From contig DAOUAI010000032.1 in NCBI GenBank assembly GCA_034433775.1, positions 206 through 64,205 on the forward strand: a stretch of 64,000 nt of DNA, given 5' to 3'. The translations under genes were made by a program, and so were the position numbers. The notes below the pieces were generated by a model. The model did not search any database. It saw only the letters and a program-made list of their open reading frames with translations, and was not told the origin of the DNA. Each line of letters opens with the position of its first letter. Within the stretch, counting starts at the first letter, position 1. Below, piece after piece: positions 20,177 through 35,313 of the stretch. The DNA is from Dehalococcoidia bacterium (lineage in GTDB: Bacteria; Chloroflexota; Dehalococcoidia; GIF9; UBA5629).

Positions 20177-20848
20177 TTATATCCCAGCCCTGGGGATAAA
20201 AATGGATGGAATGTTCTCCTTAGGTACCAGAGCACCTACCGGGCACACATCCACACAAGCCAAGCAAGCTTCACACTCAGCCTCTGCTAGCGGCATACCA
20301 GCAAAAGTACTGACAACAGTATCAATACCCCGGAAAGCAAAATCAAGAGTGCCCGCACCTTTTTCGTGACACACCCAGACACATTTACCACAGAGAATGC
20401 ATTTGTTCGGGTCATATATAAATAGTGGATGGCTTGAGTCTACAGGTAGATTTCTGGGTATCTGTTTCAACCTCTTGGGCTTTAGCCTTAACTTCAAGCG
20501 AGCAGCTGTATCCTGAAGCCCGCACTTTCCATTTTTGGCACAGTGAGCGCAATCTAGGTGATGATGACTAATTAGAAATTCGAAAGCAGTGCTCCGTAGT
20601 TTGTTTACCCGAGGGGTATTAAGATGTACTACCATACCATCGCTTACTGGCTCGGTACAAGATGTGACCGGAAACTGCCTGCCTTCAATTTCCACAAAGC
20701 AAAGGCGGCAGGAAGCAAAAGGTGGATTTACTCCCCTGATAGCACAAAGATTGGGAATATAGAATCCGTTATCTAGAGCTACCCAGAGGATCTTTTCGCC
20801 TTTCCTGGCTTTAATCTCAATGCCATCGATAATGCAGTTAACTAACAA
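20177..20848 (-). CDS. HoxU/NuoG-N-terminal-like iron-sulfur protein ([2Fe-2S], His-ligated [4Fe-4S], two [4Fe-4S])
   Basis: CxxxxxxxxxCxxC...C 2Fe-2S pattern, HHLDCAHCAKNGKC, CILCGKCVWVCHE, CEACLACVDVCP. Confidence 0.75.
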   Translation of the reverse strand: MLVNCIIDGIEIKARKGEKILWVALDNGFYIPNLCAIRGVNPPFASCRLCFVEIEGRQFPVTSCTEPVSDGMVVHLNTPRVNKLRSTAFEFLISHHHLDCAHCAKNGKCGLQDTAARLKLRLKPKRLKQIPRNLPVDSSHPLFIYDPNKCILCGKCVWVCHEKGAGTLDFAFRGIDTVVSTFAGMPLAEAECEACLACVDVCPVGALVPKENIPSIFIPRAGI

Positions 20849-20930
20849 ACTGCGGCTCTCCCGGTCTAGAATATGACCCCAAGCTACCTGGTATTCGCAA
20901 CAATCATTACCAAACTAGTGCCTCCAAACC

Positions 20931-21461
20931 TTACCCCTTCTTTCGCCCGTGTTTCAAAAAATTCTCTTCCATAAAATCCACCAGCTCTTCAATTGCTTTT
21001 GGAGAAAAATTTCTAACCCCGCATTCAATCGGTTTCTCCGTCACAACAGCTATCAGGTTTTTCAAATCAAAGGCATTTACCTTATCTGAATCTCTGTAGA
21101 GCTTTATTTTTGGCACCTCGCTTTGCTTGAACCCTTCAGCGAGCAGAATATCATAATCTGCTCCCAGGATTTGTGCCGCCTCACCGAGGGAAAGCTCGTG
21201 CAACACCGGCTTAATCAACACCAGTTGAGTAGAAGAGAGTATCAAAGTCGCCGCACTCCCTGCTTGAATATGCCGCCAGCTATCCTTGTGTGCCTTATCA
21301 AAGGAGGGCTTAGCTAAAGCATGTTTTATGGTCCCCACCTTGTAACCGCGAGACTTCAACTTCACAATAAGTGACTCTATCAGCGTAGTTTTGCCTGATT
21401 TTGATGTGCCCACTATCGCAACAATCGGAGGTGTTCGTTTAACGGCTCTAGCGTTAGACAT
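20931..21461 (-). CDS. mobB: molybdopterin-guanine dinucleotide biosynthesis adapter MobB
   Basis: P-loop IVGTSKSGKTTLIE, 176 aa MobB length. Confidence 0.85.
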   Translation of the reverse strand: MSNARAVKRTPPIVAIVGTSKSGKTTLIESLIVKLKSRGYKVGTIKHALAKPSFDKAHKDSWRHIQAGSAATLILSSTQLVLIKPVLHELSLGEAAQILGADYDILLAEGFKQSEVPKIKLYRDSDKVNAFDLKNLIAVVTEKPIECGVRNFSPKAIEELVDFMEENFLKHGRKKG

Positions 21462-21921
21462 TAGAATAGCCCCAAGGTCGCCTATAAGCCTTCCTCCACG
21501 GTTCTCTTCTCAGGGAGATATAGTCTTTCACTGCTGCCTTGATCGCGCTAACTGCCAACGATGCACAATGGTAATTACCTTCTGGCAGCCCACCCAATGC
21601 CCGAGAAATGTCCTCCTCACAGATTGCCAGCACTTCAGCGATATCCTTGCCTTTGACCAGTTCGGTGGCAACACTTCCGCAAGCGACTGTAGCACCACAA
21701 CCATCTGTCCAGAATGTTACTTCCGCTACCTGTGCCCTGTCTACCTTAATCCACATCTTCATTACTTCACCACACTGGCTACAAACAACTGCAAAACCAT
21801 CAGCATCGCTGAGATCACCTAGATTCCGAGGATTCATCGCGTGGTCAACGACTCTCTCACCATACATCTCCTTCATCCTAGCCGTTATTTGCCTTTCAAG
21901 CTCATCAAATTGGTTGTCCAT
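21454..21921 (-). CDS. NifU/IscU-like Fe-S cluster scaffold protein
   Basis: NPRNLG, DGCGATVACGS and HCASLA Cys motifs typical of the U-type scaffold. Confidence 0.7.
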   Translation of the reverse strand: MDNQFDELERQITARMKEMYGERVVDHAMNPRNLGDLSDADGFAVVCSQCGEVMKMWIKVDRAQVAEVTFWTDGCGATVACGSVATELVKGKDIAEVLAICEEDISRALGGLPEGNYHCASLAVSAIKAAVKDYISLRREPWRKAYRRPWGYSNV

Positions 21922-22252: not shown

Positions 22253-23716
22253 CTACTTCCTGGAGAGCGTCCTTACTATCTTGCCGCTTCCGTCTCTGAG
22301 GTTCACTTCGAGGGGCATTTTCCCGGGAAGCGTATGTGTGGCACATGCCAGGCATGGGTCGTAAGGCCTGAAAGCCATTTCCACCATGTTTAGCAGTCCC
22401 TCTTTAACCTCAGGACCTTTCACAAACCCCATTGCGGCTTTCTTAACAGAAAGACAAATAGGAGCTGCATTATGCTGCGTAGCTACTATAAGATTGGCTC
22501 TTGTGACCAGCCCTCTATCATCGGTCTCATAATGGTGTATTAAAGTTCCCCTTGCTGCCTCAACACACCCGATACCTATCCTCTTGAGTCTTAAGTTCAT
22601 ATTCCGTATATCCTTGCTGGTTAAAAGAGGTTCATTCGCTATCCGCTGCATGTCCTCAGCAGCCTGAAGCGCTTCTATTAACCGTGCCCAGTGGAAAGCT
22701 AGGGTATGATTGCTGGGCTTGCCCCCTAACGTGTCAAACATCTCCTCATACGCTTTCTGCGCCAGAGGAGTTGCCATACCATCGGCAGCATTCAGCCGGG
22801 CAAGAGGACCAACACGATATAACGATGTCTTATCTCCCTCTATCAATCCATTCCAACCCAATTTTCTAAGGTGAGTCAATCTGATATATGTCCAGGGTTC
22901 AACCCACTCGCCAATGTAATCAACATAGTCCCTGGGGTCGAACAATGCATACTCATTTCCTTTAGTGTCTGTGACTCTAATTTTACCTTCGTAGAAATTC
23001 ACTTTTTTGTCGGCATCCACCAGTCCCATGTTATAGACATTTAGCTTATAAGCATCGTGCAAGATCAGGTCAAGGTATTTCTTTTCGCCAAGCACAGCCT
23101 CTTTGAATAGCTTAAGGGCAAATTGAGCAAACTCCACTGAATCATTTGCCGTGTCTCTAATCCATTTTCTTTCTTCCTCGGTGACACCTCTAGGTACACC
23201 ACCAGGTAACCCGCCTTCAGGATGGGGTGCCTTGCTACCGACAAGGCGAATGATATCGCGGCATCGTTTTCTTATGTCAATTACTTTTTTCCCTATATCT
23301 AACCCCACCCTGCCAATAACGCCGAGTATATTCCTTGCCGCCGGATCAGCATCTGGACCGACAACAAAGTCCGGGGCAGAGAGGAAGAAAAAGTGAATAT
23401 AGTGGTCTTCGAGCATAAACGCATTATAGTGGAGCTGCCTTACCAATTTTGCCGCCGGGGTGGGCTCAACGCTATACACATCGTCCACTGCCTTTGTAGA
23501 TGCCATATTATGGGGTGTAGGACAAACGCCACAAATATTAGGTGTTATCCTTGGCATCTCCTCCACTGGTCTACCAATGCAGAACCTTTCAAAACCTCTT
23601 AGCTCAACCACCTGCCAGTAGGCATCTTCCACGTTACCCTTGTTGTCCAAAAAAATCTCAATTTTACCGTGTCCCTCGAGCCTTGTAATCGGGTTTATAG
23701 TTATATTCTTTGCCAT
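22253..23716 (-). CDS. [NiFe] hydrogenase large subunit, group 3 (MvhA/VhuA-like)
   Basis: N-terminal Ni-binding NICGVCPTPH, C-terminal DPCLACATH followed by a cleavable extension; 487 aa. Confidence 0.9.
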   Translation of the reverse strand: MAKNITINPITRLEGHGKIEIFLDNKGNVEDAYWQVVELRGFERFCIGRPVEEMPRITPNICGVCPTPHNMASTKAVDDVYSVEPTPAAKLVRQLHYNAFMLEDHYIHFFFLSAPDFVVGPDADPAARNILGVIGRVGLDIGKKVIDIRKRCRDIIRLVGSKAPHPEGGLPGGVPRGVTEEERKWIRDTANDSVEFAQFALKLFKEAVLGEKKYLDLILHDAYKLNVYNMGLVDADKKVNFYEGKIRVTDTKGNEYALFDPRDYVDYIGEWVEPWTYIRLTHLRKLGWNGLIEGDKTSLYRVGPLARLNAADGMATPLAQKAYEEMFDTLGGKPSNHTLAFHWARLIEALQAAEDMQRIANEPLLTSKDIRNMNLRLKRIGIGCVEAARGTLIHHYETDDRGLVTRANLIVATQHNAAPICLSVKKAAMGFVKGPEVKEGLLNMVEMAFRPYDPCLACATHTLPGKMPLEVNLRDGSGKIVRTLSRK

Positions 23717-23736
23717 TTCTACTAACTCCTTACTCC

Positions 23737-24702
23737 CTATATTCTTTTGCGCACCAGCGCTGACACCGGCGCCGAGAACCGGTAGAGGTAGCCGGCAAGG
23801 TCGTCTATTTTATCCACAAGCCTCTTTACTTCCTTTTCATCATCAGCATCTAGCATAGAAGCTAATGCAGAGACAAACTTCGTCCCAGCATCTTGTACCC
23901 CTTCCACAGGACCAAAGCAACCCCTGCACGGCAAGTTTATCTTCATGCAGACCTCACCACATCCCGAACGGGTCGCTGGTCCCAGACAAAGTACCCCTTG
24001 CGCAAGAAAACATGTATCCGGGTTAGCTTCCACTTCATGAATACGCTTGACGTCCTTCAACGCAATTCGTGGAGGCTTTGTTTTGTTCCGCTCACAAGTA
24101 TCACAAAGAGCTTTGTGAGGGGCTAAGGTTGAACCTCGCGGTGGCAACTTGCCCGCCAAAACCGCGTTGACCGCACTGGCTATCAGATCAGGTGGTGGTG
24201 GACAACCTGGAAGGTAATAATCAACATCTATAATCTGATTAAGAGCATATACCTGCTCATAAAACTCAGGCAGCGTCAACTCTTTGCCATTTACCTTGGA
24301 TTTGGGCTGAGGGACATTACCTTTTGGGTTCACAACAGTGGGCGCATCACGATAAACCCAGTTAAATATATCCTCTTTAGTAGTAAAATTCGCCATTCCC
24401 GGCGTACCACCAAAACAAGCGCAAGCACCAAAAGCGAGTACTAACTGCGATTTTCGTCTTAAGAGTTCTGCTACCTCTTCATGGTCGGAATTCCTCACAT
24501 GCCCATTGATAATGCTCAAGGCTATTTCTTTGTCCTTCAGCTCCTCAATGTGGTGGTACTTAAAGTCCATAGCCACTGGCCACAGTATGATATCCACAGC
24601 CTCAGCCACCTGCAAAACTGCCTCGTTCAGGTCAACTACAGCCTCGTCACAACCACCACAACTACCCAGCCAACAGATTGCAACCTTCGGTTTATTCGCC
24701 AT
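23737..24702 (-). CDS. [NiFe] hydrogenase small subunit with C-terminal ferredoxin-like extension (MvhG-like)
   Basis: CWLGSCGGCDE proximal cluster, GACACFGG, additional C-terminal Cys clusters; 321 aa. Confidence 0.85.
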   Translation of the reverse strand: MANKPKVAICWLGSCGGCDEAVVDLNEAVLQVAEAVDIILWPVAMDFKYHHIEELKDKEIALSIINGHVRNSDHEEVAELLRRKSQLVLAFGACACFGGTPGMANFTTKEDIFNWVYRDAPTVVNPKGNVPQPKSKVNGKELTLPEFYEQVYALNQIIDVDYYLPGCPPPPDLIASAVNAVLAGKLPPRGSTLAPHKALCDTCERNKTKPPRIALKDVKRIHEVEANPDTCFLAQGVLCLGPATRSGCGEVCMKINLPCRGCFGPVEGVQDAGTKFVSALASMLDADDEKEVKRLVDKIDDLAGYLYRFSAPVSALVRKRI

Positions 24703-24718
24703 CGCTTGTTCTCCTTCC

Positions 24719-25156
24719 TTACCTTTTTGCTTTTGCAGCAGCTAATGCTCGACTCACCGGTTTGATCTTCTTTACCGGTCCCATACTGCGCAAAGTTTCA
24801 GTCATATCTTTAACATGATTAAGTATCTCTTTACCTTCGGGGTCTGAAGAGAGCACTATGCGCACCCGCTCCGTCTCGATACCGTAAGAACTCAGCAACT
24901 TTCTCAATAGATAAACTCTCTTCCGTGCCTCAAAATTACCGTCCTGATAATGGCAGTCCCCCTCAGGACAACCTAAAATAAGAACACCGTCAGCCCCGTT
25001 CTTAAATGCATCTACAATATGGGCGGCATCTATTTTGCCGCTACAAATTATAGGCACCCAGTTCTTTATTTGGGCAGCTAGCTGAGCCTCATCAGCCAAA
25101 TATCCCCAACTAAATTTGCAAGAAAAACAGACTAATTTAGGTTCGAAATTGTTCAC
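24719..25156 (-). CDS. MvhD/FlpD-like [2Fe-2S] hydrogenase delta subunit
   Basis: LVCFSC..., ICSGKIDAAHIVDAFKNGADGVLILGCPEGDCHY pattern; 145 aa. Confidence 0.8.
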   Translation of the reverse strand: MNNFEPKLVCFSCKFSWGYLADEAQLAAQIKNWVPIICSGKIDAAHIVDAFKNGADGVLILGCPEGDCHYQDGNFEARKRVYLLRKLLSSYGIETERVRIVLSSDPEGKEILNHVKDMTETLRSMGPVKKIKPVSRALAAAKAKR

Positions 25157-25183
25157 TTCTCCTCCTTACATCTTAGTTTGTAG

Positions 25184-26977
25184 TTACTGCAACGCCGCAT
25201 AAACTTTATCGATTTTCTCGTAAGTCAGGTCCTCGACCATTTTTCTGGCATCAGAAGGGCAAGCAGCTACACACATGCCACAAGACTTGCATCGGAACAT
25301 ATCAGTGGCAGAGATGATTTTGCCCTCTCTCTCCACAAGATGCGCTGACCCGTAATTACAGGAGTACACACAAATTCCACACCCGCTGCATCTATCCTCA
25401 TCCACCTGGACAGAATAAAGTGACTTCTCAAACCCAATAGATATGCAGGCTTTGCATGATACACAGGGACCACAAGTAGCGCATCTTTTCGCTTCCTCTA
25501 TAGCTTCATCGAGGGTAAGCCCTCTTTCAAACAACTGAAAATGCATCCTCTGCTCAGGCGGTATCCAGACCACCTCAGTTGGCGGCTTATAGTTGGATCT
25601 GAGCGGGATATCGAATTTCTCAAAGTCTCTTCGTCTACCCTCAGTCATATTCAGTCCCCTGAGATACCTGTGGATAGACTCAGCGGCTTCCATCCCTTCT
25701 TTCATCGCCTCAACCATGAACCCTATCCGGCGGACATCACCACCAATAAAGACGTCACGGAATTTAAGACTTTGTAAGGTGTGAGGGTCAACGGCCAGCC
25801 TGCCCCTCTCATCGAGAAGCATCTCATTCTCTAGAACAACCCGGTCAGGCCCCTGCCCTATAGTTATTATAAGAACGTCTCCATCCAGCTCTATCGTGTC
25901 CGATAAGTCAAACTTCGGATTAAATCCCTGCTCATCAAAGACACAGGTACACTTTGGAGACACAATCTTTCTGAACCTGCCTGCTTCACCAATTATCTTC
26001 TGTACACCCCGGGAATATACTATTTGAATTCCCTCTTCCCAGGCTCCCCTTATTTCCTCCTCATCGGCAGGAATACCATCGCGAGAACTTTTATCTTCGC
26101 ACTCCAAACATACCACAGTTACCTCGCCCCCAAGTCTCCTCACCGAGCGCGCAACATCAAACGCCACATTCCCACCACCAATCACAATCACCTTGCGGTA
26201 CTTAAAATAGTCGGGCTCGATATTCCCATGGCTGATCTCGTAAAGCAAAGTATGCCCGTACAACACTCCGGATAGGTCCTGCCCCTCCACTGGTTTACCA
26301 TCGAAGGTCAATATTCTGGGGTAAGGCGTCCCTTTCGCCAAAAATATTGCCTTATACCCCTGCATCCTCAATCTTTCAAAAGTAAGCTTACCTTTACCTA
26401 CCTCAGAATTAAACTTGACATCTATCCCGGCAATCCGTACCAGATTGTCAATGGTAGTCTTTAGCACGTCGTCCGGAAGACGGTAGTCAGGTATAAGCCA
26501 CAAAGCCCCACCCAGCCTGTTTGAAGCTTCAAAAATCGTCGGCTTGTACCCTCTCTTCGCCAGATAGTAGGCACACATCAGACCACCCGGCCCACCCCCC
26601 ACAATCGCCACATTTTCCTTGTCTTTGACTATGTTCAGTTCCTCCCTTTGGTTCAAGTAGTCCGTATAATAGTCTGAGAGGAACCTTTTTAACAGCCTGC
26701 GCCTTATCGCTCCACCTTTGGTCTTATAGTTGCACTCAAGTTCACACAAACCACAAATATAGCCGCAGATGTTGAAAAACGGGTTCTTTTCGTAGAGGTA
26801 ATCACCTATCTGAATTATGCCATTTTTGGCTGACTCGATATCCCTGGGCAAAAGGGAGATAAGCACATTAGTCCGCTGGATATCTTCGTTGATGGGACAT
26901 TTAATCTGACATGGGGGTAACAACTGCTTGACAGCCTCCTCCACATGCGCTCCACCAGTGGTTACTGTACGCCACAT
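25184..26977 (-). CDS. GltD/HdrA-like FAD- and NAD(P)H-binding flavoprotein with N-terminal [4Fe-4S] and C-terminal 2x[4Fe-4S] ferredoxin domain
   Basis: CGYICGLCELEC, VAIVGGGPGGLMCAYYLAKRGY dinucleotide fold, second VIVIGGGNVAFD fold, C-terminal CATCGPCVSCKAC...CSGCGICVYSC...CKSCGMCVAACP. Confidence 0.75.
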   Translation of the reverse strand: MWRTVTTGGAHVEEAVKQLLPPCQIKCPINEDIQRTNVLISLLPRDIESAKNGIIQIGDYLYEKNPFFNICGYICGLCELECNYKTKGGAIRRRLLKRFLSDYYTDYLNQREELNIVKDKENVAIVGGGPGGLMCAYYLAKRGYKPTIFEASNRLGGALWLIPDYRLPDDVLKTTIDNLVRIAGIDVKFNSEVGKGKLTFERLRMQGYKAIFLAKGTPYPRILTFDGKPVEGQDLSGVLYGHTLLYEISHGNIEPDYFKYRKVIVIGGGNVAFDVARSVRRLGGEVTVVCLECEDKSSRDGIPADEEEIRGAWEEGIQIVYSRGVQKIIGEAGRFRKIVSPKCTCVFDEQGFNPKFDLSDTIELDGDVLIITIGQGPDRVVLENEMLLDERGRLAVDPHTLQSLKFRDVFIGGDVRRIGFMVEAMKEGMEAAESIHRYLRGLNMTEGRRRDFEKFDIPLRSNYKPPTEVVWIPPEQRMHFQLFERGLTLDEAIEEAKRCATCGPCVSCKACISIGFEKSLYSVQVDEDRCSGCGICVYSCNYGSAHLVEREGKIISATDMFRCKSCGMCVAACPSDARKMVEDLTYEKIDKVYAALQ

Positions 26978-27090: not shown

Positions 27091-27140
27091 TTAAAAAGTA
27101 ACCCCGTCTCTTATCGAGACAAAGTCCTCAGGGGGACTAA
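27091..27140 (-). terminator. putative intrinsic terminator of hydrogenase operon A
   Basis: Minus-strand hairpins AGTCC-CCCTGA-GGACT and GTCTC-GATAA-GAGAC followed by GGGGTTACTTTTT, just after the hoxH-like stop. Confidence 0.4.
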
Positions 27141-27151
27141 CAGAGACAATC

Positions 27152-28615
27152 TCAGTTCGTCAGCTCTCCCAAAAGTTCGCCCTTCTGTGAGATAAGCTGC
27201 ACTCTGAACGGCATCTGGCCTAGAACGTGTGTGGAGCAAGAGAGACAGGGATCGTAACAGCGGATCGCCACTTCTACCCGGTTGAGGATACCCTCAGTGA
27301 CCTTGCCATTTTTTATGAACTCCTTAGCCACCTCATACACCGCACGGTTCATTGCCCAGTTGTTGTTACCTGTGGCCACAATAAGATTAACCTTCAGGAT
27401 CTTACCAGTATCATCCACCCAGTAATGATGAAACAAAGTGCCCCTGGGAGCTTCGATAACTCCCACACCTTGCTCGTTATATTTTCCGGACTCTACAATC
27501 AAATCTGTAGAACAAATATCCTTATCTTCCAGCAATTGCTGAGCTCTTTCCAAAGAATAAAGTAATTCGATGAGACGTGCATAATGGTAGTAGAGCGAAC
27601 CTTCCACTATGCCATTCTTACCCAAGCTTTTAAAATTTTTGAGCTCTGATTGGGCCCTATAAGTTGATATCGCCCCACAGACATTCAAACGAGCCAGAGG
27701 ACCAGCCCTGTAGACTCCCTTCGGATAACCTTGCTTTTTATAAAAGGGGAACTTGAGATATGACCAGTCTTCCACATACTCATTGATGATATTCAGGTAG
27801 TTAGCAGGATCGAACTGGTCTTCAAGAACCTTACCTTCAGCATCAATTAGCCTCAATTTGCCATCATAAAGTTCGAGATTATTGTCTTTGTCCACCAATC
27901 CCAGATATCCTGTAGGAAAGCTTGCACATGTACAGACAAAATCTTTGTTGCGCTCATAAAATTGCTTTATTATCCCAATAGCAGCCTCAGCATCAGCTAT
28001 CATCTGGTCAATTTGTCTGAGAAAACGGTCGCGGTCAGATGGTGATAACGCTGTGTTCATGCCCCCGGGCACTGCACCATTAGGATGAACCTTTTTCCCG
28101 CCGATGGCTTGAATAATTGCCTGCCCGAAACCACGAAGCCTCACACCTTTGATAGCAAGCTCGGGGTTCGTCTCAATCAACCCCACCACATTCCGCTTCG
28201 CTGGCTCATAGTCCAGCCCCAGAAGTAAATCTGGACTAGCCAGATGGAAAAAGTGGAGAGCATGCGACTGGATAAATTGTCCCATATGCATTAGCTCTCG
28301 AAGTAACTTTGCCGGTCGGGTCAGTTCAACACCAAGAATTGCATCGCAAGCTTTGGCAGAGGCTAAATGATGGCTCACCGGGCAGATACCACAAATTCGC
28401 GGAGTGATCACAGGCATCTCCCAGAACACTCTGCCCTCGCAGAACTTCTCAAAGCCACGGAATTGAGTCACATGAAATCGAGCATCCAGAACATTCCCGT
28501 TATCATCAAGTTGAATGGTCACCTTACCGTGACCCTCAAGCCTGGTGACCGGGTTTATCTCAATTGTTTTACGATTTTCAGGAATTTCCTTGGTCTTCTT
28601 AACTTCAGTCGCCAT
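27152..28615 (-). CDS. [NiFe] hydrogenase large subunit, group 3 (HoxH-like)
   Basis: [12 protein letters not shown]-terminal Ni site, [10 protein letters not shown]-terminal site; 487 aa. Confidence 0.9.
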
Positions 28616-28627
28616 TCTGCACCTCTT

Positions 28628-29164
28628 TTAATCAAAGCGCATCATTTCACTGGGCAACACAGGTATCCGCCCCTCCAATAGTTCCTTTAAAGCGTAGAGA
28701 ATTGCCTTGGCATCTGGAGGACAACCTGGCACATAGCAGTCCACCTTTACCACGTGGTTCACCGGCTTCACCTGCTCCAGCAACGCTGGTACCCCGGGTG
28801 GACGAGGTATTTTCCCATCACAGGTGCTCTCAGTCTCAATATAGGCACGCCTTAGCACCTCATCTTTGTCAAATGTACTGCGCATTCCACAGACTCCACC
28901 AAAACAAGCGCAATCACCCCAAGCCATCAAAATCTTACAGTTAGCCCTGAGTTCTTTCAAAACCTCTTCTTCCTCCGTATTTCCTACCGAACCTTCCACT
29001 ATACCTACGTCCACTGGCGAGAACTCCTTGATATCGGTGATCGGGCTCCTAGTAAACTCAACCGCATTAAGTAATTCCACTATCGCCTCATCTATATCTA
29101 GAAATGACATATGACATCCGGAACAAGCTTCCAGCCAAACAGTAGCTACCTTCACTTTCGCCAT
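28628..29164 (-). CDS. [NiFe] hydrogenase small subunit, short group-3 type (HoxY-like)
   Basis: WLEACSGCHMS, GDCACFGG, VPGCPP; 178 aa with proximal cluster only. Confidence 0.85.
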   Translation of the reverse strand: MAKVKVATVWLEACSGCHMSFLDIDEAIVELLNAVEFTRSPITDIKEFSPVDVGIVEGSVGNTEEEEVLKELRANCKILMAWGDCACFGGVCGMRSTFDKDEVLRRAYIETESTCDGKIPRPPGVPALLEQVKPVNHVVKVDCYVPGCPPDAKAILYALKELLEGRIPVLPSEMMRFD

Positions 29165-29189: not shown

Positions 29190-31184
29190 TTACCTGCTGA
29201 GCCGCCTGTCGACCTCGCTGATGAGTTCCCAGTCAGCACGAATTCCTTCCGGTGGCCTGACAAGCCGCGTGGTATGTTTAGTTAGGCCATCGATGGTAGT
29301 ATAAGTCCCGCTGACCTCTGTCCAGAGTGGTGACGGCAATACCACGTCTGCTTCGGAGACAACACCAGACATAAAGCTTGCCTGTGCCACGAGGAATTCA
29401 ATACCGCTAGGACGAGCTGCCAATCCAGGCAACTCGGAGCAATCTTCACCTAAGAGTAAGTACAAAGCCTTTATGGAACCGTCTTTGAGTAACTTTGCCA
29501 AACTGAACTCACCACTATTGACCACCTCCGTATTCCAGAGCCCAACGCTATTTCCTCCCGGCTTTAACCACAGCGTCTTCAATGTCCGTCCCCCGTCTCC
29601 AAATAAGCTCGCTAGGCCAAAAAGCAATGCTACCAATCCCGGCTTCTCTTGCTGCAAAAACCCCTGCCCATAGATAACAACACAGCGCTTTGCCTTAGCT
29701 ACCATAGAAGCAGCACTCTTCAGTCCTTCATAATCAAGACCTGCGCGCTCACAAACATCTGCTGGCTTAATGTCCGAAAGCGAAGCAGCAAACTTTTTGT
29801 TCCTGGCCGGGTTGCCGATCACACCTTCGTCAATAATTATTCTAGACAAAGCTTTAATGGCTAACTCTTCCTTACCTTTGTCCGGACACAACCACAACAC
29901 CGCTTGATAAGGAAAACTGTTTCTCACAGCGTCGAAAACAATGAGATTCGCCCCATTTCGCCTGACTGCACGGACAATGAGGGAACCAATCACAGGATGG
30001 GTCTCCAGAGGATCAGCGCCAGCCACAAACAGGCAATCGGCCTCCAATAGTTCCTCGACTGAGCGGAGTTCGAGGTCTTTTAACTCCTTTTTACCATCTG
30101 ATGCTTGCAATGCCTGCCCGACAACCCTGAAATAATCCCCATCCAGGCTATCAAGTCGCTTACTTCCTAGAGAGCCCGTTATAAACTCCTTGAAAGCCCT
30201 GGCAGACTCGTTAGATAATTGGCTCGAAATCAACCCAGCAATACTATTAGCGCCGTGACGTGTCTTCATATCCCGTAACTTGGTAGACACAATCTCTATA
30301 GCCTCCGCCAAGGAACAAGGCTCTAGCTTACCGTTGCTCCGCTTTAGCGGGGTCAGAATGCGTTTGGCAGTTACCTGCGAGAAAGAAAAACGCCCTTTCC
30401 TGCACAGCAGACCACGCGGTTTGGAAAGGTCAGGGCTGTCAATTTTCACTACCCTGTTGTCTTTGATAAATGCCTTAATCTCACAGCCGACACCGCATAT
30501 CGGACAAACACTTGTCACCTGCTCACATTCTGAACTCCTGCCCTTATAAGCGCTGGACTTTGAGAAAATAGCACCGGTGGGACAAACCTGGAAACAAGCC
30601 CCGCAAGAAATGCATGAGGACTCCCCAAGTGGTTGACCCAGGTCAGCCACCACCCTGTCCCGCCAGCCACGGTAACCAAAGTCCAGAATATGGATACCAG
30701 CAAATTCGTCACACGCCCGTATGCAGCGTCCACAAAGAACACATCGGTTATGGTCAACAACCAGATATTTGTTCACCGAGTCCACGGGCAATGATGGCCA
30801 GGAAAGGGGATATCGTAAGTTGTCCATCTGATAGCGATAAGCGAGTGCCTGTAATTCACATTCTCCACTAGCTACACATTGTGCACATAGATGGTTTTTC
30901 TCGGTAAACATCAACTCGAGGATGAGACGACGATATTTCTCCAGTTTTTCAGTATGTGTCTGCACTACCAAACCATCCCGTGCAGGATAAGTACAGGCCG
31001 GCATCACTCGCCTTTCTCCTTCTATTTCCACCAGACAGAGCCTGCAAGCAGCCACATCGCTCAGCCCATCGTAATGACACAGCGTTGGAAGGTCGATATT
31101 ATTCGCCTTGCAAACCTCAAGGATAGTATCACCTTCTTTCCCTTTGACCTGTTTCCCGTTGATGGTTAAAGTAATCTCGTTCAT
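29190..31184 (-). CDS. NuoG/HoxU/FdhA-like subunit: N-terminal 2Fe-2S plus 4Fe-4S domains followed by a partial molybdopterin-oxidoreductase-like domain
   Basis: CxxxxxxxxxxCxxC 2Fe-2S, HLCAQCVASGEC, CVLCGRCIRACDE, CISCGACFQVCP, MopB-type CPICGVGCEI plus RILTPLKR; 664 aa. Confidence 0.8.
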   Translation of the reverse strand: MNEITLTINGKQVKGKEGDTILEVCKANNIDLPTLCHYDGLSDVAACRLCLVEIEGERRVMPACTYPARDGLVVQTHTEKLEKYRRLILELMFTEKNHLCAQCVASGECELQALAYRYQMDNLRYPLSWPSLPVDSVNKYLVVDHNRCVLCGRCIRACDEFAGIHILDFGYRGWRDRVVADLGQPLGESSCISCGACFQVCPTGAIFSKSSAYKGRSSECEQVTSVCPICGVGCEIKAFIKDNRVVKIDSPDLSKPRGLLCRKGRFSFSQVTAKRILTPLKRSNGKLEPCSLAEAIEIVSTKLRDMKTRHGANSIAGLISSQLSNESARAFKEFITGSLGSKRLDSLDGDYFRVVGQALQASDGKKELKDLELRSVEELLEADCLFVAGADPLETHPVIGSLIVRAVRRNGANLIVFDAVRNSFPYQAVLWLCPDKGKEELAIKALSRIIIDEGVIGNPARNKKFAASLSDIKPADVCERAGLDYEGLKSAASMVAKAKRCVVIYGQGFLQQEKPGLVALLFGLASLFGDGGRTLKTLWLKPGGNSVGLWNTEVVNSGEFSLAKLLKDGSIKALYLLLGEDCSELPGLAARPSGIEFLVAQASFMSGVVSEADVVLPSPLWTEVSGTYTTIDGLTKHTTRLVRPPEGIRADWELISEVDRRLSR

Positions 31185-31186
31185 CC

Positions 31187-34100
31187 TTATTCTCCTACCT
31201 CAAGGTCGCATCTCAGGCACCTTTTAGCTTCCCTTCTGGCTTCTTCTTCTGTAAGAGGCAGTTCTATCTCTTCAAAGCTCTGCCGCCTTTTCTCTACGGG
31301 AAGCGTTGGTGCCTCTCGCCGGGGTTGTTCTTTCCATATTTCTTTAGCCACATCAATAGGCAACTCTTCAGCAATCTCAACTTTACGTTTAAGCTCGTGC
31401 AACTCCACTCTAGATGTATCTCCCCTGAGATACTTGTCTATAGCTATAGCCGCCCTCCTCCCGTCAGCAATAGCATATATTACCATGTCAGGACCCCTGA
31501 CAAAGTCACCGCCAGCGAAAATGCCAGGGACATTAGTAGCTAAAGTGTTGGAGTCGATTCGAAGTCGATCCCACTCTGTTCTTTCCAGGCGGCTATCCGG
31601 GGGCAAGAAAGAGAGGTCTGGCGCTTGCCCCACAGCAGCAATTACTGCGTCTGCCTCCACCACGAAATCAGAGCCCGGGATAGGTGCTGGCCTGCGTCTA
31701 CCGCTTGCATCGATATCTCCCAACTCCATGCGAACGCACCGCAAACCTGTGACCTTCCAGTTCTCACTCAAAATCCGCACTGGGTTGACTAAGAAGTTCA
31801 TCTTAACCCCCTCAGCCACTGCCCCCTCATATTCCACCTCGGACACTGGCATCTCCTCTCGAGTGCGGCGGTAATAGATGTTCACCTCTTCTGCCCCGAG
31901 TCTTAGCGCAGCACGTGCTGAATCTATAGCCACATTACCGCCACCGATAACAGCTACTCTCCGCTCGATCTTCGTCTGCCTACCAATTTTGACATCACGC
32001 AAAAAAGTGAGGCCATAATAAAGACCGGTCAGTCCCTCCACCTCGCCAGGAATCCCTATCCGCTGGCTTTTTTGTGCTCCTGCGGCGATAAAAACCGCAT
32101 CGTAGCCACTTTGCAGAAGGTGCCTCACACGGAAATTCTCGTTTATCGGTGTGCTATACCTGATCTCCACCCCCCGCTTTGCAATGTACTCGATTTCCTG
32201 TTCGATAACTTTACGCGGTAAGCGGAACTCCGGGATGGCTACAGCAAGCATCCCACCACCCACTGGAAGCGCTTCAAACACCGTCACACCATATCCCATC
32301 TGCGCCAAGAAATAGGCACAGCTAAGACCTGTTGGACCAGCCCCGACCACAGCCACCTTCTGAGGCTTAGTCCTGGGAAAAGGCTGAGGTGGGGGCACTT
32401 TATCGAGATTATCAAAATACCAATCGGCAGCAAATCGCTTGAGTGCCCGAATAGCCATAGGTTCATCAATATCTTTTCGCCGGCACTTGTATTCGCATGG
32501 ATGATGGCAGATTCGCCCACATATTGCTGGGAATGGGTTGCGTTCTCTGATAGTCTCCACCGCCTCCAAATACTCCCCGGCAGCAATATGAGCAATATAT
32601 TTCGGGATATTAATGCCCACCGGGCAAGTATGCTGACAAGGTGACGGAAATAACGCCTGACATACTGCAGCCGGGCACCGCTTGTCCATGATATGGGCTT
32701 CGTACTCCTCCCTGAAATGTCGCACAGTAGTCAGCACAGGATTAGGCGAAGTCTGCCCGAGTCCACAAAGTGAGCAGGAGCTTACCATCTCAGCAAGTTC
32801 TTCGATGGTGCTCAAGTCTTCCATCGTTCCCTCGCCGTTCGTTATCTTGGTCAGTAATTCTAGCATCTTAGGTATCCCTGCCCGACAGGGAGTGCACTTA
32901 CCGCACGACTCGTCTCTGGTGAACTGGAGGAAAAACTTAGCCACATCAACCATACAGCTATCTTCGTCCATTACCACCAGACCTCCAGACCCCATAATCG
33001 CGCCGAGACTGGTGATAGACTCATAGTCTACAGGTGTGTTAATATGCTGAGTAGGAATAACACCACCAGAAGGCCCCCCCATCTGCACCGCCTTAAATCT
33101 CTTGCCTTCTGGTATGCCACCGCCGATATCAAAGATTATTCTTCCCAACCTCGTCCCCAGAGGGACTTCAACCAGCCCGGTGTTGTTTATTTTTCCTACT
33201 AGACAAAGTACCTTCGTGCCCTTACTTCTTTCCGTACCCACAGCTGAAAACCAGTCTGCTCCCTTCCAGATGATTTGCGGCACGTTTGACCAGGTCTCTA
33301 CATTATTAATAGTGGTCGGCTTACCAAAAAGTCCTTTGTTCGCAGGAAACGGCGGACGCTGCCGTGGGTTGCCACGCCTACCCTCAATAGATATTAAAAG
33401 TGCTGTTTCTTCACCACAGACAAAAGCCCCCGCCCCAGGGAAAATATCAAGGTCAAATTCAAATCCTGTGCCCAGTATATTTTTCCCCAGTAACCCATGT
33501 TCTCGGGCCTGCTCAATAGCATGTCGTAACGTTTCAATAGCTAAAGGATACTCAGCTCGTATATAGGCATACCCTTGGCGCACATTACCGATAGCGTAAG
33601 CACCTATTGTCATTCCCTCGATTATGGAGTGCGGATTGCCCTCCAAAACGGCACGGTTCATATACGCCCCGGGGTCACCTTCGTCGCCGTTACATACCAC
33701 AAATTTCTCATCCCCAGGCGCGTTGCGAACAAACCCCCACTTAGTAGCTGCAGGGAATCCAGCACCACCACGCCCCCTTAAACCGGACTTCCGAACCTCA
33801 TCCAGGACTTCATCAGGGGACATTTGCGTTAATACCTTAGCCAACGCCTGGTAGCCATCCCTGGCAATATATTCCTCGATATCCATCGGGTCAATATCCT
33901 GATTATGCATTATCCTTATCTCTTGAAATCCAAAAGGGGGAGACTCAGTATCCAGCACCCATTCTGCTACCGGTGTCCCTTTGATAAGATGCTGGTCAAC
34001 AATGCGCTGCACTTTATCCTCAGAGAGGTCAGCGTAGATAAATCTCCTCTTATTTCCAGGCTCAATAACAGTAATTACAGGTTCACGCCCGCATAGTCCA

Positions 34101-34315
34101 ATGCAGCTTGCCTTTAACACAACTACATCAGACAACTTCCGAGATGCTATCTCGCGCTCGAGAGCCGCCAGTATCCGGTTTGCCCCTGAGGATATACCAC
34201 ATGTACCTAGATGCACTCTGACCTGTATCTTCTTTTCCCGCTCTGCAACTTTAGCCTGAGCCTGTTCCTTCCAGCTTGAAAGCTCTTTCACTGACGCAAG
34301 TGGCTTTACAATCAT
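31187..34315 (-). CDS. fusion of NuoF/HoxF-like NADH-binding FMN/[4Fe-4S] subunit (with N-terminal thioredoxin-like 2Fe-2S domain) and a C-terminal GltD-like NAD(P)H:FAD oxidoreductase
   Basis: GRGGAGFPAATKWGF and ESCGKCTPCR (NuoF core); extra clusters CSLCGLG, CPAAVCQALFPSPCQHTCP, CGRICHHPCEYKC; VAVVGAGPTGLSCAYFLAQMGY plus VAVIGGGNVAIDSAR dinucleotide folds; 1042 aa. Confidence 0.8.
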   Translation of the reverse strand: MIVKPLASVKELSSWKEQAQAKVAEREKKIQVRVHLGTCGISSGANRILAALEREIASRKLSDVVVLKASCIGLCGREPVITVIEPGNKRRFIYADLSEDKVQRIVDQHLIKGTPVAEWVLDTESPPFGFQEIRIMHNQDIDPMDIEEYIARDGYQALAKVLTQMSPDEVLDEVRKSGLRGRGGAGFPAATKWGFVRNAPGDEKFVVCNGDEGDPGAYMNRAVLEGNPHSIIEGMTIGAYAIGNVRQGYAYIRAEYPLAIETLRHAIEQAREHGLLGKNILGTGFEFDLDIFPGAGAFVCGEETALLISIEGRRGNPRQRPPFPANKGLFGKPTTINNVETWSNVPQIIWKGADWFSAVGTERSKGTKVLCLVGKINNTGLVEVPLGTRLGRIIFDIGGGIPEGKRFKAVQMGGPSGGVIPTQHINTPVDYESITSLGAIMGSGGLVVMDEDSCMVDVAKFFLQFTRDESCGKCTPCRAGIPKMLELLTKITNGEGTMEDLSTIEELAEMVSSCSLCGLGQTSPNPVLTTVRHFREEYEAHIMDKRCPAAVCQALFPSPCQHTCPVGINIPKYIAHIAAGEYLEAVETIRERNPFPAICGRICHHPCEYKCRRKDIDEPMAIRALKRFAADWYFDNLDKVPPPQPFPRTKPQKVAVVGAGPTGLSCAYFLAQMGYGVTVFEALPVGGGMLAVAIPEFRLPRKVIEQEIEYIAKRGVEIRYSTPINENFRVRHLLQSGYDAVFIAAGAQKSQRIGIPGEVEGLTGLYYGLTFLRDVKIGRQTKIERRVAVIGGGNVAIDSARAALRLGAEEVNIYYRRTREEMPVSEVEYEGAVAEGVKMNFLVNPVRILSENWKVTGLRCVRMELGDIDASGRRRPAPIPGSDFVVEADAVIAAVGQAPDLSFLPPDSRLERTEWDRLRIDSNTLATNVPGIFAGGDFVRGPDMVIYAIADGRRAAIAIDKYLRGDTSRVELHELKRKVEIAEELPIDVAKEIWKEQPRREAPTLPVEKRRQSFEEIELPLTEEEARREAKRCLRCDLEVGE

Positions 34316-34332: not shown

Positions 34333-34872
34333 CTAACTATAGGAATCTAGGATTTCTTTTAATTTGCTTGGCTTCACTTTTCTATGCACATCATGCCCAA
34401 TGGCTATCACCGGCGACAAACCACAGCAACCGAGACATCTGACCGTTTCCAATGAAAACTTACCATCAGGGGTAATACCCTTGGGCTCCAGACCATAGTC
34501 CTTCTTTAATGCCTTCAAAATCCTCTCGGACCCCTTAACATAGCAACTCGTCCCCGTACAGACTTGAATAACATGTTTACCCTTTGGCACAAGAGAGAAA
34601 AAGTGGTAAAAACTGACTATACCATAGACCTCACTCAAGGGCACTTTCATCTCAGCCGAGACCACTCGTAACACTTCAGGCGGTAAATAACCTACAATCC
34701 CCTGCACCTGCTGCAATACCCGTATTATAGCCCCCGCCTTCCCAGCATTTTCATCTACCACCTTAAGTATCCGCTGCAAAACCTCTCGGTTAATACCCTC
34801 CGCTGTTTTTGTTGCCGTAGCAGTACCTGTTTGCTGCACAGTTGCCCCCTTTGATATTTGAGTATGATTCAA
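34333..34872 (-). CDS. NuoE/HoxE-like thioredoxin-fold [2Fe-2S] subunit
   Basis: VCTGTSCYVKG...CLGCCGLSP 2Fe-2S ligand pattern of the 24-kDa subunit family. Confidence 0.85.
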   Translation of the reverse strand: MNHTQISKGATVQQTGTATATKTAEGINREVLQRILKVVDENAGKAGAIIRVLQQVQGIVGYLPPEVLRVVSAEMKVPLSEVYGIVSFYHFFSLVPKGKHVIQVCTGTSCYVKGSERILKALKKDYGLEPKGITPDGKFSLETVRCLGCCGLSPVIAIGHDVHRKVKPSKLKEILDSYS

Positions 34873-35240
34873 ACTTCCTGCAAGATTATGTCATATTAGC
34901 ACTCAAGCCAGTAACCGCAAAACCTCTCCTTATAAAGTATCCCTGAACTAACACATTGCTTACATCGTACTTTTTGCCTAGATTCAAACCGGACTTTCAG
35001 CCACAGCCAAACATATTGCCACCTGTAACTGTGCCATGGCTCGTACACTGTACATTTTATCATATACAAGCATCTTATAAAGGTAAAAGATGTCCTGCCC
35101 TCAAAAGCACAACGCAACCCGTTAGTTTTAACTGAGGCAAATTGACCATAGCAATACTGATGGATTAAACAGCAATAGAACAACCAAAGCCCTTGAGGGA
35201 AAACGCATTAAAACATCGAGAACAAAAAGATAGAACACAG

Positions 35241-35313
35241 TAGGCCGTGCAGGAATCGAACCTGCGACACCCTGATTAAAAGTCAGGTGCTCTACCGACT
35301 GAGCTAACGGCCC
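35241..35313 (-). tRNA. tRNA-Lys(TTT)
   Basis: Hand-folded: acceptor GGGCCGT, anticodon loop CTTTTAA, T-loop TTCGATT; no encoded CCA. Confidence 0.85.

Follow-up and report, generated by a model that had tools for sequence, protein, structure and literature searches.

A HydB-GltD fusion in a Dehalococcoidia [NiFe]-hydrogenase operon, with a predicted NADPH/FAD module at the position of the ferredoxin-like domain

Known enzymes of the Bfu family bifurcate electrons at a site that holds flavin mononucleotide (FMN), and not at a flavin adenine dinucleotide (FAD) of the GltD type. In the B subunit of these enzymes, a C-terminal ferredoxin-like domain (B3/B4 [4Fe-4S] clusters) takes low-potential electrons from the mobile C1 cluster of the C subunit (HydC or NfnC) and reduces ferredoxin (PMC12018979). 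The gene described here, a hydB-gltD fusion of 1042 amino acids (aa), appears to encode a B subunit in which that domain has been exchanged for another one. It belongs to a Dehalococcoidia bacterium (NCBI GenBank assembly GCA_034433775.1, contig DAOUAI010000032.1) and was studied within a stretch of 64,000 nucleotides (nt; positions 206 to 64,205 of the forward strand), hereafter called the window, whose own numbering is used for its features.

In general terms, the following described systems are closest to this locus: (i) the NiFe-HydABCSL hydrogenase of Acetomicrobium mobile (PDB 7T2R/7T30; PMC8880783, PMC9304861); (ii) NfnABC and StnABC (PDB 9BOV, 9N5U, 8OH5; PMC7483475, PMC10482914, PMC11829005, PMC12018979); (iii) the archaeal group F hybrid [FeFe]/[NiFe] hydrogenases (PMC11216029), likened to it by their published description; (iv) the cyanobacterial HoxEFUYH hydrogenase of group 3d (bioRxiv 10.64898/2026.06.25.734504), which has been shown to bifurcate and confurcate with ferredoxin and nicotinamide adenine dinucleotide (NAD(H)), its phosphorylated form NADPH being inactive; and (v) NfnSL (NfnAB) and GltD. 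In NfnABC, the NADPH module is, by experiment, an NADPH-specific, non-bifurcating entry site (PMC9304861, PMC11829005).

Several residues of the B subunit are of help when comparing these systems. The flavin-pocket signature of the Bfu enzymes has been defined in PMC9304861 and in the Hox preprint (bioRxiv 10.64898/2026.06.25.734504). As a criterion of the family, the histidine of the 'B2' site is reported to be present in bifurcating homologues and absent from non-bifurcating ones (PMC9304861); this His/Cys site is now held to bind Zn (PMC11829005, PMC12018979), and the N-terminal site likewise contains Zn, not a cluster, in Csac and Tsi NfnB (PMC11829005, PMC12018979). The census of the Bfu family was collected by means of the InterPro entry IPR017896 (ferredoxin-like domain) and excluded metagenomic data (PMC9304861), so that a fusion variant such as the present one was invisible to it. 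In the literature searched, with most subscription journals outside reach, neither the bacterial fusion nor its swap relation to the ferredoxin domain was found described; the sole precedent found is the archaeal HydB-GltA domain (PMC11216029, 2024).

A GltD-type module at the end of a Bfu-type HydB

The fusion gene is an unbroken open reading frame of 1042 codons (31187..34315, minus strand, read from 34315 to 31187; all features placed below in the window lie on this same strand). It starts with ATG, 17 nt past the stop codon of hydC/hoxE, and a Shine-Dalgarno-like AGGGGGA is found 6 nt upstream of that start. Four Pfam domains exceed their gathering cut-offs: Complex1_51K (residues 174-346, 146 bits), NADH_4Fe-4S (457-541, 115 bits), Fer4_20 (539-634, 90 bits) and Pyr_redox_2 (653-952, 117 bits). 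Below cut-off, matches were obtained to 2Fe-2S_thioredx (27-108, 21 bits for a cut-off of 24.8) and SLBB (371-419). Among the NCBIfam models, nuoF_fam covers residues 140-542, while residues 511-1036 are matched by a GltD-type 'NAD(P)-binding protein' model. A previous interpretation of this DNA, made from its letters alone (the sequence-only reading), had proposed one chain joining a NuoF-type module to a GltD-like module, and had suggested a search with hidden Markov models for precisely these domains; the uninterrupted frame and the four Pfam domains over cut-off bear the proposal out.

The fusion is a real gene and is widely conserved. Among 5.8 billion proteins searched, full-length homologues of ~1029 aa, 63-85% identical, make up more than 120 clusters (at 90% identity), and their assemblies come from NCBI, JGI, ENA and Logan. 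In addition, a scan of species-representative genomes yielded 38 full-length copies, the top one (98% identical) in the Dehalococcoidia metagenome-assembled genome (MAG) H85_861, to which the organism of the window must hence be closely related. The homologues, from Dehalococcoidia/Chloroflexi, carry generic names ('FAD-dependent oxidoreductase', 'NuoF', 'hydrogenase'), and a look-up of the cluster members likewise gave only generic ones ('NADH-quinone oxidoreductase subunit F', 'FAD-dependent oxidoreductase') and no functional annotation. In an alignment of 129 fusions, to which the residue counts given below refer, the junction residues, the C-terminal CxxC and all the proposed metal ligands are invariant or nearly so. 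The occurrence of each half as a separate protein in other organisms could suggest that an assembly error, a frameshift or a pseudogene has joined separate hydB and gltD-like genes. This explanation is extremely improbable: full-length homologues in such numbers across independent assemblies and species-representative genomes, together with an invariant junction, argue against it, as does the fact that the GltD part has neither an N-terminal segment nor a start of its own and begins 5 residues past a HydB ligand. A frameshift at about 32.6 kb, which had been put forward as one way in which the fusion idea could fail, was consequently rejected, together with misassembly; the junction does lie there, at nt ~32,640-32,660 (residues 552/558).

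By sequence comparison, residues 1-552 are assigned to a HydB of the Bfu type with all the bifurcation signature residues. In a PDB search, residues 32-556 were ~65% identical to A. mobile HydB (7T2R_B, 703 bits), followed by NfnB of NfnABC, StnB and the HydB of [FeFe] enzymes, whereas complex-I NuoF reached only ~390 bits. The NuoF-type nature attributed to this half is hence correct, but not its identity as a plain HoxF/NuoF diaphorase, which was rejected because Bfu-type HydB/NfnB proteins score ~300 bits higher and Bfu-only residues are present.

Three domains can be distinguished in this half. The thioredoxin-like N-terminal domain (aa 27-108; 33992..34237) contains the 'B5' site, with the spacing His35-x3-Cys39...Cys71-x3-Cys75, and aligns with the N-terminal domains of HydB/NfnB. 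Its candidate ligands are conserved (H35 in 120, C39 in 121, and C71 and C75 each in 128 of the 129 fusions) and may bind [2Fe-2S] or Zn. The thioredoxin-like 2Fe-2S domain of the sequence-only reading is thus present, if with a score under the cut-off, but its ligands would be one His and three Cys instead of four Cys. The FMN/NAD(H)-binding domain (aa 174-346; 33278..33796) has GRGGAGFPAATKWGF at residues 181-195, with GRGGAG at 181-186 and F195, and the triplet A217-Y218-M219. Regarding the flavin-pocket marks of bifurcating members, A217 and M219 are invariant, F195 is kept in 125/129, and GGPSG (413-417) is invariant in a 42-sequence alignment (A1).

The third domain (aa 457-552; 32660..32947) combines the [4Fe-4S] cluster B1 with the Bfu-specific Zn/'B2' site. 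The four B1 cysteines (C471, C474, C477, C517) are invariant, three of them within ESCGKCTPCR (residues 469-478); both this motif and GRGGAGFPAATKWGF had already been recognized as NuoF core motifs. The 'B2' ligands of A. mobile HydB, C438/C476/H525/C531/C536 (PMC9304861), map in the alignment to C454/T492/H541/C547/C552, of which C454, H541, C547 and C552 are invariant, while position 492 holds Thr or Ser, which most BfuB proteins also have there. One of the two additional Cys clusters claimed from the letters (C547-x4-C552, with C454 and H541) corresponds to this Zn/'B2' site, common to all Bfu-type HydB. As an extra iron-sulfur cluster, C547/C552 were rejected, since they are hinge ligands of every Bfu HydB, including the unfused protein described next.

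The unfused HydB comes from Dehalococcoidia MAG CSMAG_2243 (locus L043), has 632 aa and is 67% identical to the fusion, with which it is collinear over residues 3-555. Past C552 it continues with a canonical 2x CxxCxxCxxxCP ferredoxin-like domain. In the fusion, on the other hand, the GltD iron-sulfur domain opens 5 residues past C552, and the Pfam scan detected no Fer4-type domain (the B3/B4 [4Fe-4S] route). As L043 carries a ferredoxin domain where the fusion carries GltD, the predicted NADPH/FAD module takes the structural position of the ferredoxin arm; the alignment thus indicates that the ferredoxin-like end of HydB has been swapped, at an exact point, for a complete NADPH/FAD module. 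The two proteins share the His-x3-Cys N-terminal motif, and both have HydC upstream and a HydA-like gene downstream. Ending as it does in 2x[4Fe-4S], the unfused HydB can be regarded as the natural 'before' state of the swap. The canonical unfused HydC-HydB-HydA-like set occupies positions 2143-6041 of L043 and, in consequence, ferredoxin-type and NADPH-type versions appear to coexist in the class.

The best PDB match of residues 558-1037 is the GltD-like insert of NfnA (9BOV_A residues 102-567, 414 bits), after which come Tsi NfnA, StnC and then NfnL (4ylf_B, 5jca_L) and GltD. The iron-sulfur domain (aa 558-634; 32414..32644; Fer4_20) includes CGRICHHPCEYKC at residues 599-611. Its proximal [4Fe-4S] site is predicted at C564, C603, C607 and K626, which align with the A7 ligands C108/C147/C151/K170 of Csac NfnA; residue 626 is K in 101 fusions, R in 16 and H in 12. 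C599 was rejected as a ligand, being Val in half of the fusion family. The Rossmann domains for FAD and NADP(H) (aa 653-952; 31460..32359; Pyr_redox_2) contain GAGPTG (658-663), GGGNVA (791-796) and YRR (815-817), and the FAD motif GAGPxG and the NADPH motif GGGNxAxD…YRR are near-invariant, even in fusions from other phyla. A C-terminal half devoid of an FAD/NAD(P) site, which would have spoken against the fusion as an enzyme with two flavins, is at odds with these motifs and with the 117 bits of Pyr_redox_2.

The C-terminal tail (aa 1007-1042 plus stop; 31187..31297) ends in EAKRCLRCDLEVGE and matches the N-terminal segment of canonical GltD/NfnL. Specifically, the final 35 residues (…EEARREAKRCLRCDLEVGE) align to residues 13-43 of 4ylf_B, and the tail is collinear with NfnA/StnC. 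While canonical GltD/NfnL proteins have their RC(L)xC segment at the N-terminus, before PCxxxCP, the RCLRC segment of the fusion (residues 1032-1036) stands at its extreme C-terminus. Given that the tail aligns to the NfnL N-terminal segment, the GltD module would therefore be circularly permuted, exactly as in NfnA/StnC. The tail supplies C1033 and C1036, both kept in 127/129 fusions; together with C560 and C611, they are the most likely ligands of the distal cluster. The claim of a complete GltD module, based on CGRICHHPCEYKC, GAGPTG and GGGNVA, holds as regards these motifs; it had overlooked both the conserved C-terminal CxxC and the permutation.

All in all, the C-terminal half reads as a GltD/NfnL module with two predicted [4Fe-4S] sites and FAD and NADPH motifs, and it looks functional and of the NADPH type. 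A single-chain AlphaFold2 model (42-sequence alignment; mean predicted local distance difference test score of 70) reproduced this half, the only one that gave meaningful fold matches, with template modelling (TM) scores of 0.75-0.79 to NfnL/GltD-type structures, and 0.79 to NfnL 4ylf_B. The structure prediction proposed as a check of both flavin sites was useful for this half only, since the FMN domain was badly modelled (scores of ~30-40 at residues 290-390).

Two related architectures were also observed (among proteins P0171, P0177 and P0144): proteins of ~650 aa consist of NADH_4Fe-4S, Fer4_20 and Pyr_redox_2 without the FMN domain, and in a 1130-aa Desulfobaccales fusion the RCLxC motif is followed by an additional 2x[4Fe-4S] domain.

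The hydrogenase operon and the partners of the fusion elsewhere

The fusion is the second of five genes separated by gaps of 2-25 nt, in the order hydC, fusion, hydA-like, small subunit, large subunit; no ferredoxin gene is present in this five-gene operon. The other members are: (i) hydC/hoxE (34333..34872), for a NuoE-like [2Fe-2S] subunit of 179 aa with the motif CTGTSC...CLGCC (2Fe-2S_thioredx, 166 bits; best PDB match 7t2r_C, 150 bits); (ii) the hydA-like gene (29190..31184), for a conduit of 664 aa with a NuoG-type N-terminus and a molybdopterin-oxidoreductase-like domain that lacks the dinucleotide-binding domain, matched over its full length by 7t2r_A (393 bits) and with neither Pyr_redox_2 nor Fer4_20 in the Pfam scan; (iii) the [NiFe]-hydrogenase small subunit of 178 aa (28628..29164; Oxidored_q6, 105 bits, and NCBIfam); and (iv) the large subunit of 487 aa (27152..28615; NiFeSe_Hases, motif DPCLSCSTH), which scores 615 bits with 7t2r_D, 464 with Hox SH 5xf9_D and 423 with MvhA. 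For the four subunits searched (fusion, HydC, HydA-like and large subunit), the best PDB match was the corresponding 7T2R chain. Based on these matches, the operon is assigned to a cytoplasmic [NiFe]-hydrogenase of the Bfu/HydABCSL type with five subunits, the fusion being its B (diaphorase) subunit. The presence of two separate flavin/pyridine-nucleotide modules in one chain beside NuoE-, NuoG- and [NiFe]-hydrogenase genes, as the sequence-only reading had it, is upheld.

The operon is bounded upstream by a tRNA-Lys(UUU) gene (35240..35313), directly 5' of it. Between them, promoter-like sites (35054..35087) lie 5' of hydC, and a terminator-like hairpin (27100..27126; 11-bp stem and T run) is found 26 nt past the large-subunit stop, both being consensus matches only. 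Six more tRNA genes are scattered elsewhere in the window.

Directly 3' of the fusion operon, a second [NiFe]-hydrogenase cluster (22253..26977) has genes for a GltD-like flavoprotein of 597 aa whose C-terminal domain is of the 2x[4Fe-4S] kind (26977..25184), MvhD (25156..24719), a small subunit of 321 aa (24702..23737) and a large subunit of 487 aa (23716..22253). It corresponds to an Mvh-type hydrogenase with a GltD/NfnL-like protein in the usual place of HdrA; therefore, the locus has two different hydrogenases, each with a GltD-type NAD(P)H module. In many of the Dehalococcoidia loci that were examined, this cluster accompanies the fusion operon, lying downstream of it or, in divergent orientation, upstream. 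Past both clusters (20177..21921), a trio of genes encodes a NifU/IscU-like protein (21921..21454), a MobB-like protein (21461..20931) and a 223-aa iron-sulfur protein of the HoxU/NuoG-N-terminal type (20848..20177); the same trio, with its short HoxU-type member, recurs past the hydrogenase genes in related loci, among them L004, L005, L030 and L033.

Among the 38 loci, HydC stands 5' of the fusion in 35. Thirty loci were informative, that is, had enough downstream sequence, and 23 of them keep the five-gene [NiFe] order; all but one of these are labelled Dehalococcoidia/Chloroflexota. Whether fusion orthologues always sit next to hoxYH-type genes, a check proposed in the sequence-only reading, is thus answered in the negative: elsewhere the partners are (i) an [FeFe] HydA, in Bacillota and Planctomycetota; (ii) FdhA together with MetVF; (iii) a selenocysteine-type FdhA; or (iv) a Glu_synthase-domain protein. 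Since the same fusion appears beside such varied partners, it constitutes a reusable core, like the ordinary BfuBC core. In a neighbour-joining tree of HydB cores the fusions fall into at least three separate groups, the tree being too crude to tell one origin from several.

Some of these loci deserve a brief description. In two Chloroflexi MAGs (L012, 6882-14630; L016, 6876-14679), NuoE and the NuoF-GltD fusion lie between an FdhA-like gene (872-885 aa, Molydop_binding) and MetV/MetF, a layout that suggests an NAD(P)H-linked formate dehydrogenase/methylenetetrahydrofolate reductase redox module of the Wood-Ljungdahl pathway. In a Bacillota MAG (L035, 1913-6707) and a Planctomycetaceae MAG (L037, 9989-14956), a full [FeFe] HydA (Fe_hyd_lg_C plus Fe_hyd_SSU) comes after the fusion, which by gene content makes these loci the putative [FeFe] counterpart of the [NiFe]-linked fusion. 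In a Thermodesulfobacteriota MAG (L034, 3421-6165), one in-frame stop splits the FdhA-like gene adjacent to the fusion into 368 aa and 541 aa; this stop is likely a selenocysteine UGA rather than the mark of a pseudogene. Finally, the metagenome contig L080 (7239-17976) has two tandem pairs of NuoE and fusion, followed by a short HoxU-like gene and a 528-aa Glu_synthase (PF01645) protein, and in L040 (5221-10656) the fusion is paired with a Glu_synthase-domain protein; an NAD(P)H-linked GltB-like enzyme on the same core is possible in these two.

Comparison with described systems and the proposed reaction

The locus shares with A. mobile HydABCSL the same five-subunit set and gene types, a HydB core ~65% identical in which B1, the His/Cys hinge and the flavin-pocket motifs are kept, and a long HydA-type conduit with a vestigial molybdopterin-like domain. 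But while HydB of A. mobile ends in a 2x[4Fe-4S] ferredoxin-like domain and uses ferredoxin, the fusion ends in a GltD module of 490 aa; besides, the hinge C476 is replaced by Thr492, and the N-terminal site has His and three Cys instead of four Cys. NfnABC/StnABC, the top or near-top match for both halves, has in common with the fusion the permuted GltD, the Lys-ligated proximal cluster, the YRR NADPH motif and a NuoE-like C subunit. Nevertheless, in these enzymes the GltD module is located in the A (NuoG-like) subunit, from which it feeds mid-potential electrons to FMN, and NfnB keeps its ferredoxin-like domain with no hydrogenase, whereas here GltD forms the C-terminal end of B, where the ferredoxin domain would be, and the complex includes a [NiFe] module.

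The archaeal group F hydrogenases have a NuoF-like HydB with a glutamate-synthase (GltA) domain, a group 3 [NiFe] large subunit and a NuoG-like conduit, and are predicted to bifurcate; they differ in possessing a HydA-HyhS fusion with an H-cluster, are represented by AlphaFold models only, and their acceptor is given as 'likely ferredoxin'. Cyanobacterial HoxEFUYH resembles the present complex in its HoxE/F/U/Y/H-type subunits and in a HoxF without B3/B4 that yet has the bifurcation motifs, but it has no GltD module, and its HoxU is short (238 positions in the NCBIfam model, 242 aa in 5xf9_B) as compared to 664 aa here. Judging by this 664-aa conduit, the extended HoxF and a large subunit nearer to 7t2r_D by bit score, the complex does not appear to be a group 3d Hox. 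As for NfnSL and GltD, they show the same Fer4_20 plus Pyr_redox_2 fold with FAD and NADPH motifs; in NfnSL, however, the GltD-type FAD bifurcates and needs the NfnS partner, which the complex here is without.

In terms of family features, the fusion locus has the flavin-pocket motifs, B1, the 'B2' His/Cys site and the NuoE-like C and NuoG-like A subunits alongside, and lacks the C-terminal ferredoxin-like B3/B4 domain; regarding the Nfn-Bfu features, it has a GltD module with a proximal cluster of three Cys and Lys, and lacks both GltD in the A subunit and the ferredoxin domain in B. The complex would thus work most like NiFe-HydABCSL, with parts common to NfnABC/Stn, and departs from each in one defining feature. 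The link to electron bifurcation that had been suggested for this gene finds backing in a HydB half with Bfu-specific residues and a GltD half nearest to the NfnABC/Stn NADPH module.

Because the ferredoxin-binding end has been replaced by a putative NADPH/FAD module, the enzyme probably links H2 to NADH plus NADPH. In the reading preferred here, with a probability of roughly 0.45, a [NiFe]-hydrogenase of the Bfu type would have NAD(H) reacting at its FMN and NADP(H) at the FAD of the GltD module, NADP(H) being on the low-potential side in replacement of ferredoxin. More tentatively, the enzyme could be a ferredoxin-independent con-/bifurcating [NiFe]-hydrogenase in which NADP(H) is the low-potential partner in ferredoxin's stead. 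In the mechanism proposed for the preferred reading, H2 would be oxidised at the Ni-Fe site, and its electrons would reach the B1-FMN-C1 site by way of the small subunit and then the HydA-like conduit. One electron pair would then go to NAD+ at FMN; the second one would pass through the HydC cluster and the two GltD clusters to FAD and NADP+. The net reaction would be 2 H2 + NAD+ + NADP+ <-> NADH + NADPH + 2 H+.

The in-cell potentials of NAD and NADP are -280 mV and -380 mV, respectively (PMC9304861). With these values, NADP(H) (~-380 mV in the cell) could play the low-potential role of ferredoxin in HydABCSL, and NAD(H) (~-280 mV) the high-potential role. By our own Nernst estimate, the reaction would be balanced at ~100-200 Pa H2: under that balance, H2 would be evolved from NADH and NADPH, and over it both pools would be charged from H2. 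The gene itself, its domains, the conservation of its ligands, the exact point of the swap, the synteny of the operon and the nearest solved relatives are observed; the cofactor occupancy, the assembly, the HydC-to-GltD electron path, the coupling and the absence of ferredoxin we infer.

A number of points weigh against this proposal. The NuoF half of the structure model is poor and hence gives no support for proximity between HydC and the distal GltD cluster; NADP(H) specificity is suggested by motif similarity only; and the in-cell gap between NADH and NADPH, of ~100 mV, is narrow for electron bifurcation. Moreover, the loss of B3/B4 is no proof of lost ferredoxin coupling, since Synechocystis HoxEFUYH, also without them, still bifurcates, coupling H2 with NAD+ and with ferredoxin, apparently at the [2Fe-2S] clusters of HoxE (E1) and of the HoxF N-terminus (F2) (bioRxiv 10.64898/2026.06.25.734504). 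An alternative, on balance unlikely, is then that the enzyme bifurcates with H2, NAD+ and ferredoxin like HydABCSL or the cyanobacterial Hox, the GltD arm adding NADP(H) as a fourth partner. Ferredoxin could dock at HydC and the N-terminal clusters of HydB, in line with the conserved N-terminal site (H35, C39, C71, C75) and the adjacent HydC, although that site may hold Zn, as in Csac and Tsi NfnB. Alternatively, it could dock at the distal GltD cluster: the two GltD-type clusters of NfnSL lead to ferredoxin, the GltD half matches NfnL (4ylf_B, 5jca_L), and the glutamate-synthase domain of archaeal HydB was proposed to have ferredoxin as its likely acceptor (PMC11216029). NADPH being the mid-potential donor in NfnABC, NADP(H) might also act here as a second mid-potential donor or acceptor, thus merging a hydrogenase with an Nfn-type transhydrogenase. 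What speaks against ferredoxin is that the GltD module sits exactly where the ferredoxin domain would be, whereas NfnABC carries it in the HydA conduit, and that the operon has no ferredoxin gene.

The complex might, on the other hand, not bifurcate at all. Uncoupled [NiFe]-hydrogenases of group 3 that are linked to NAD(P) are well known, and the second-best match of the large subunit (5xf9) is of the NAD-reducing Hox type. Under this explanation, the enzyme would be a hydrogenase of dual specificity in which electrons from H2 could go to FMN (NAD+) or to FAD (NADP+) with no obligatory coupling of the two, equilibrating H2 with both pools or acting as a slow NADH/NADPH transhydrogenase. In keeping with it, the two nucleotide sites look intact, and little energy is to be gained from coupling NADH to NADPH. 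This possibility is nonetheless doubtful, and ranks below the one that retains ferredoxin, inasmuch as all the residues reported to set bifurcating homologues apart from non-bifurcating ones (His/Cys3 hinge, A-x-M, Phe, GGPSG) are present in the HydB core, which shares 65% identity with an enzyme proven to bifurcate; in the solved Bfu structures, furthermore, the domain at the C-terminal position reaches FMN only via the gated mobile HydC cluster.

Meaning for Dehalococcoidia and for the Bfu family

Dehalococcoidia and related Chloroflexota, for the most part uncultured, rank among the most abundant bacteria of the subsurface. If the proposed H2-NADH-NADPH coupling is true, these bacteria could obtain NADPH from H2 without ferredoxin or, at low H2 pressure, vent NADH and NADPH as H2. 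For the Bfu family, it would mean a wider reaction repertoire, the enzyme being the first of the Bfu type with H2 and both pyridine nucleotides as its three substrates. In any case, the fused HydB and its 67%-identical unfused relative make up a natural domain-swap pair that bears on the Bfu model, according to which the mobile HydC cluster passes low-potential electrons to whatever occupies the C-terminal position of HydB.

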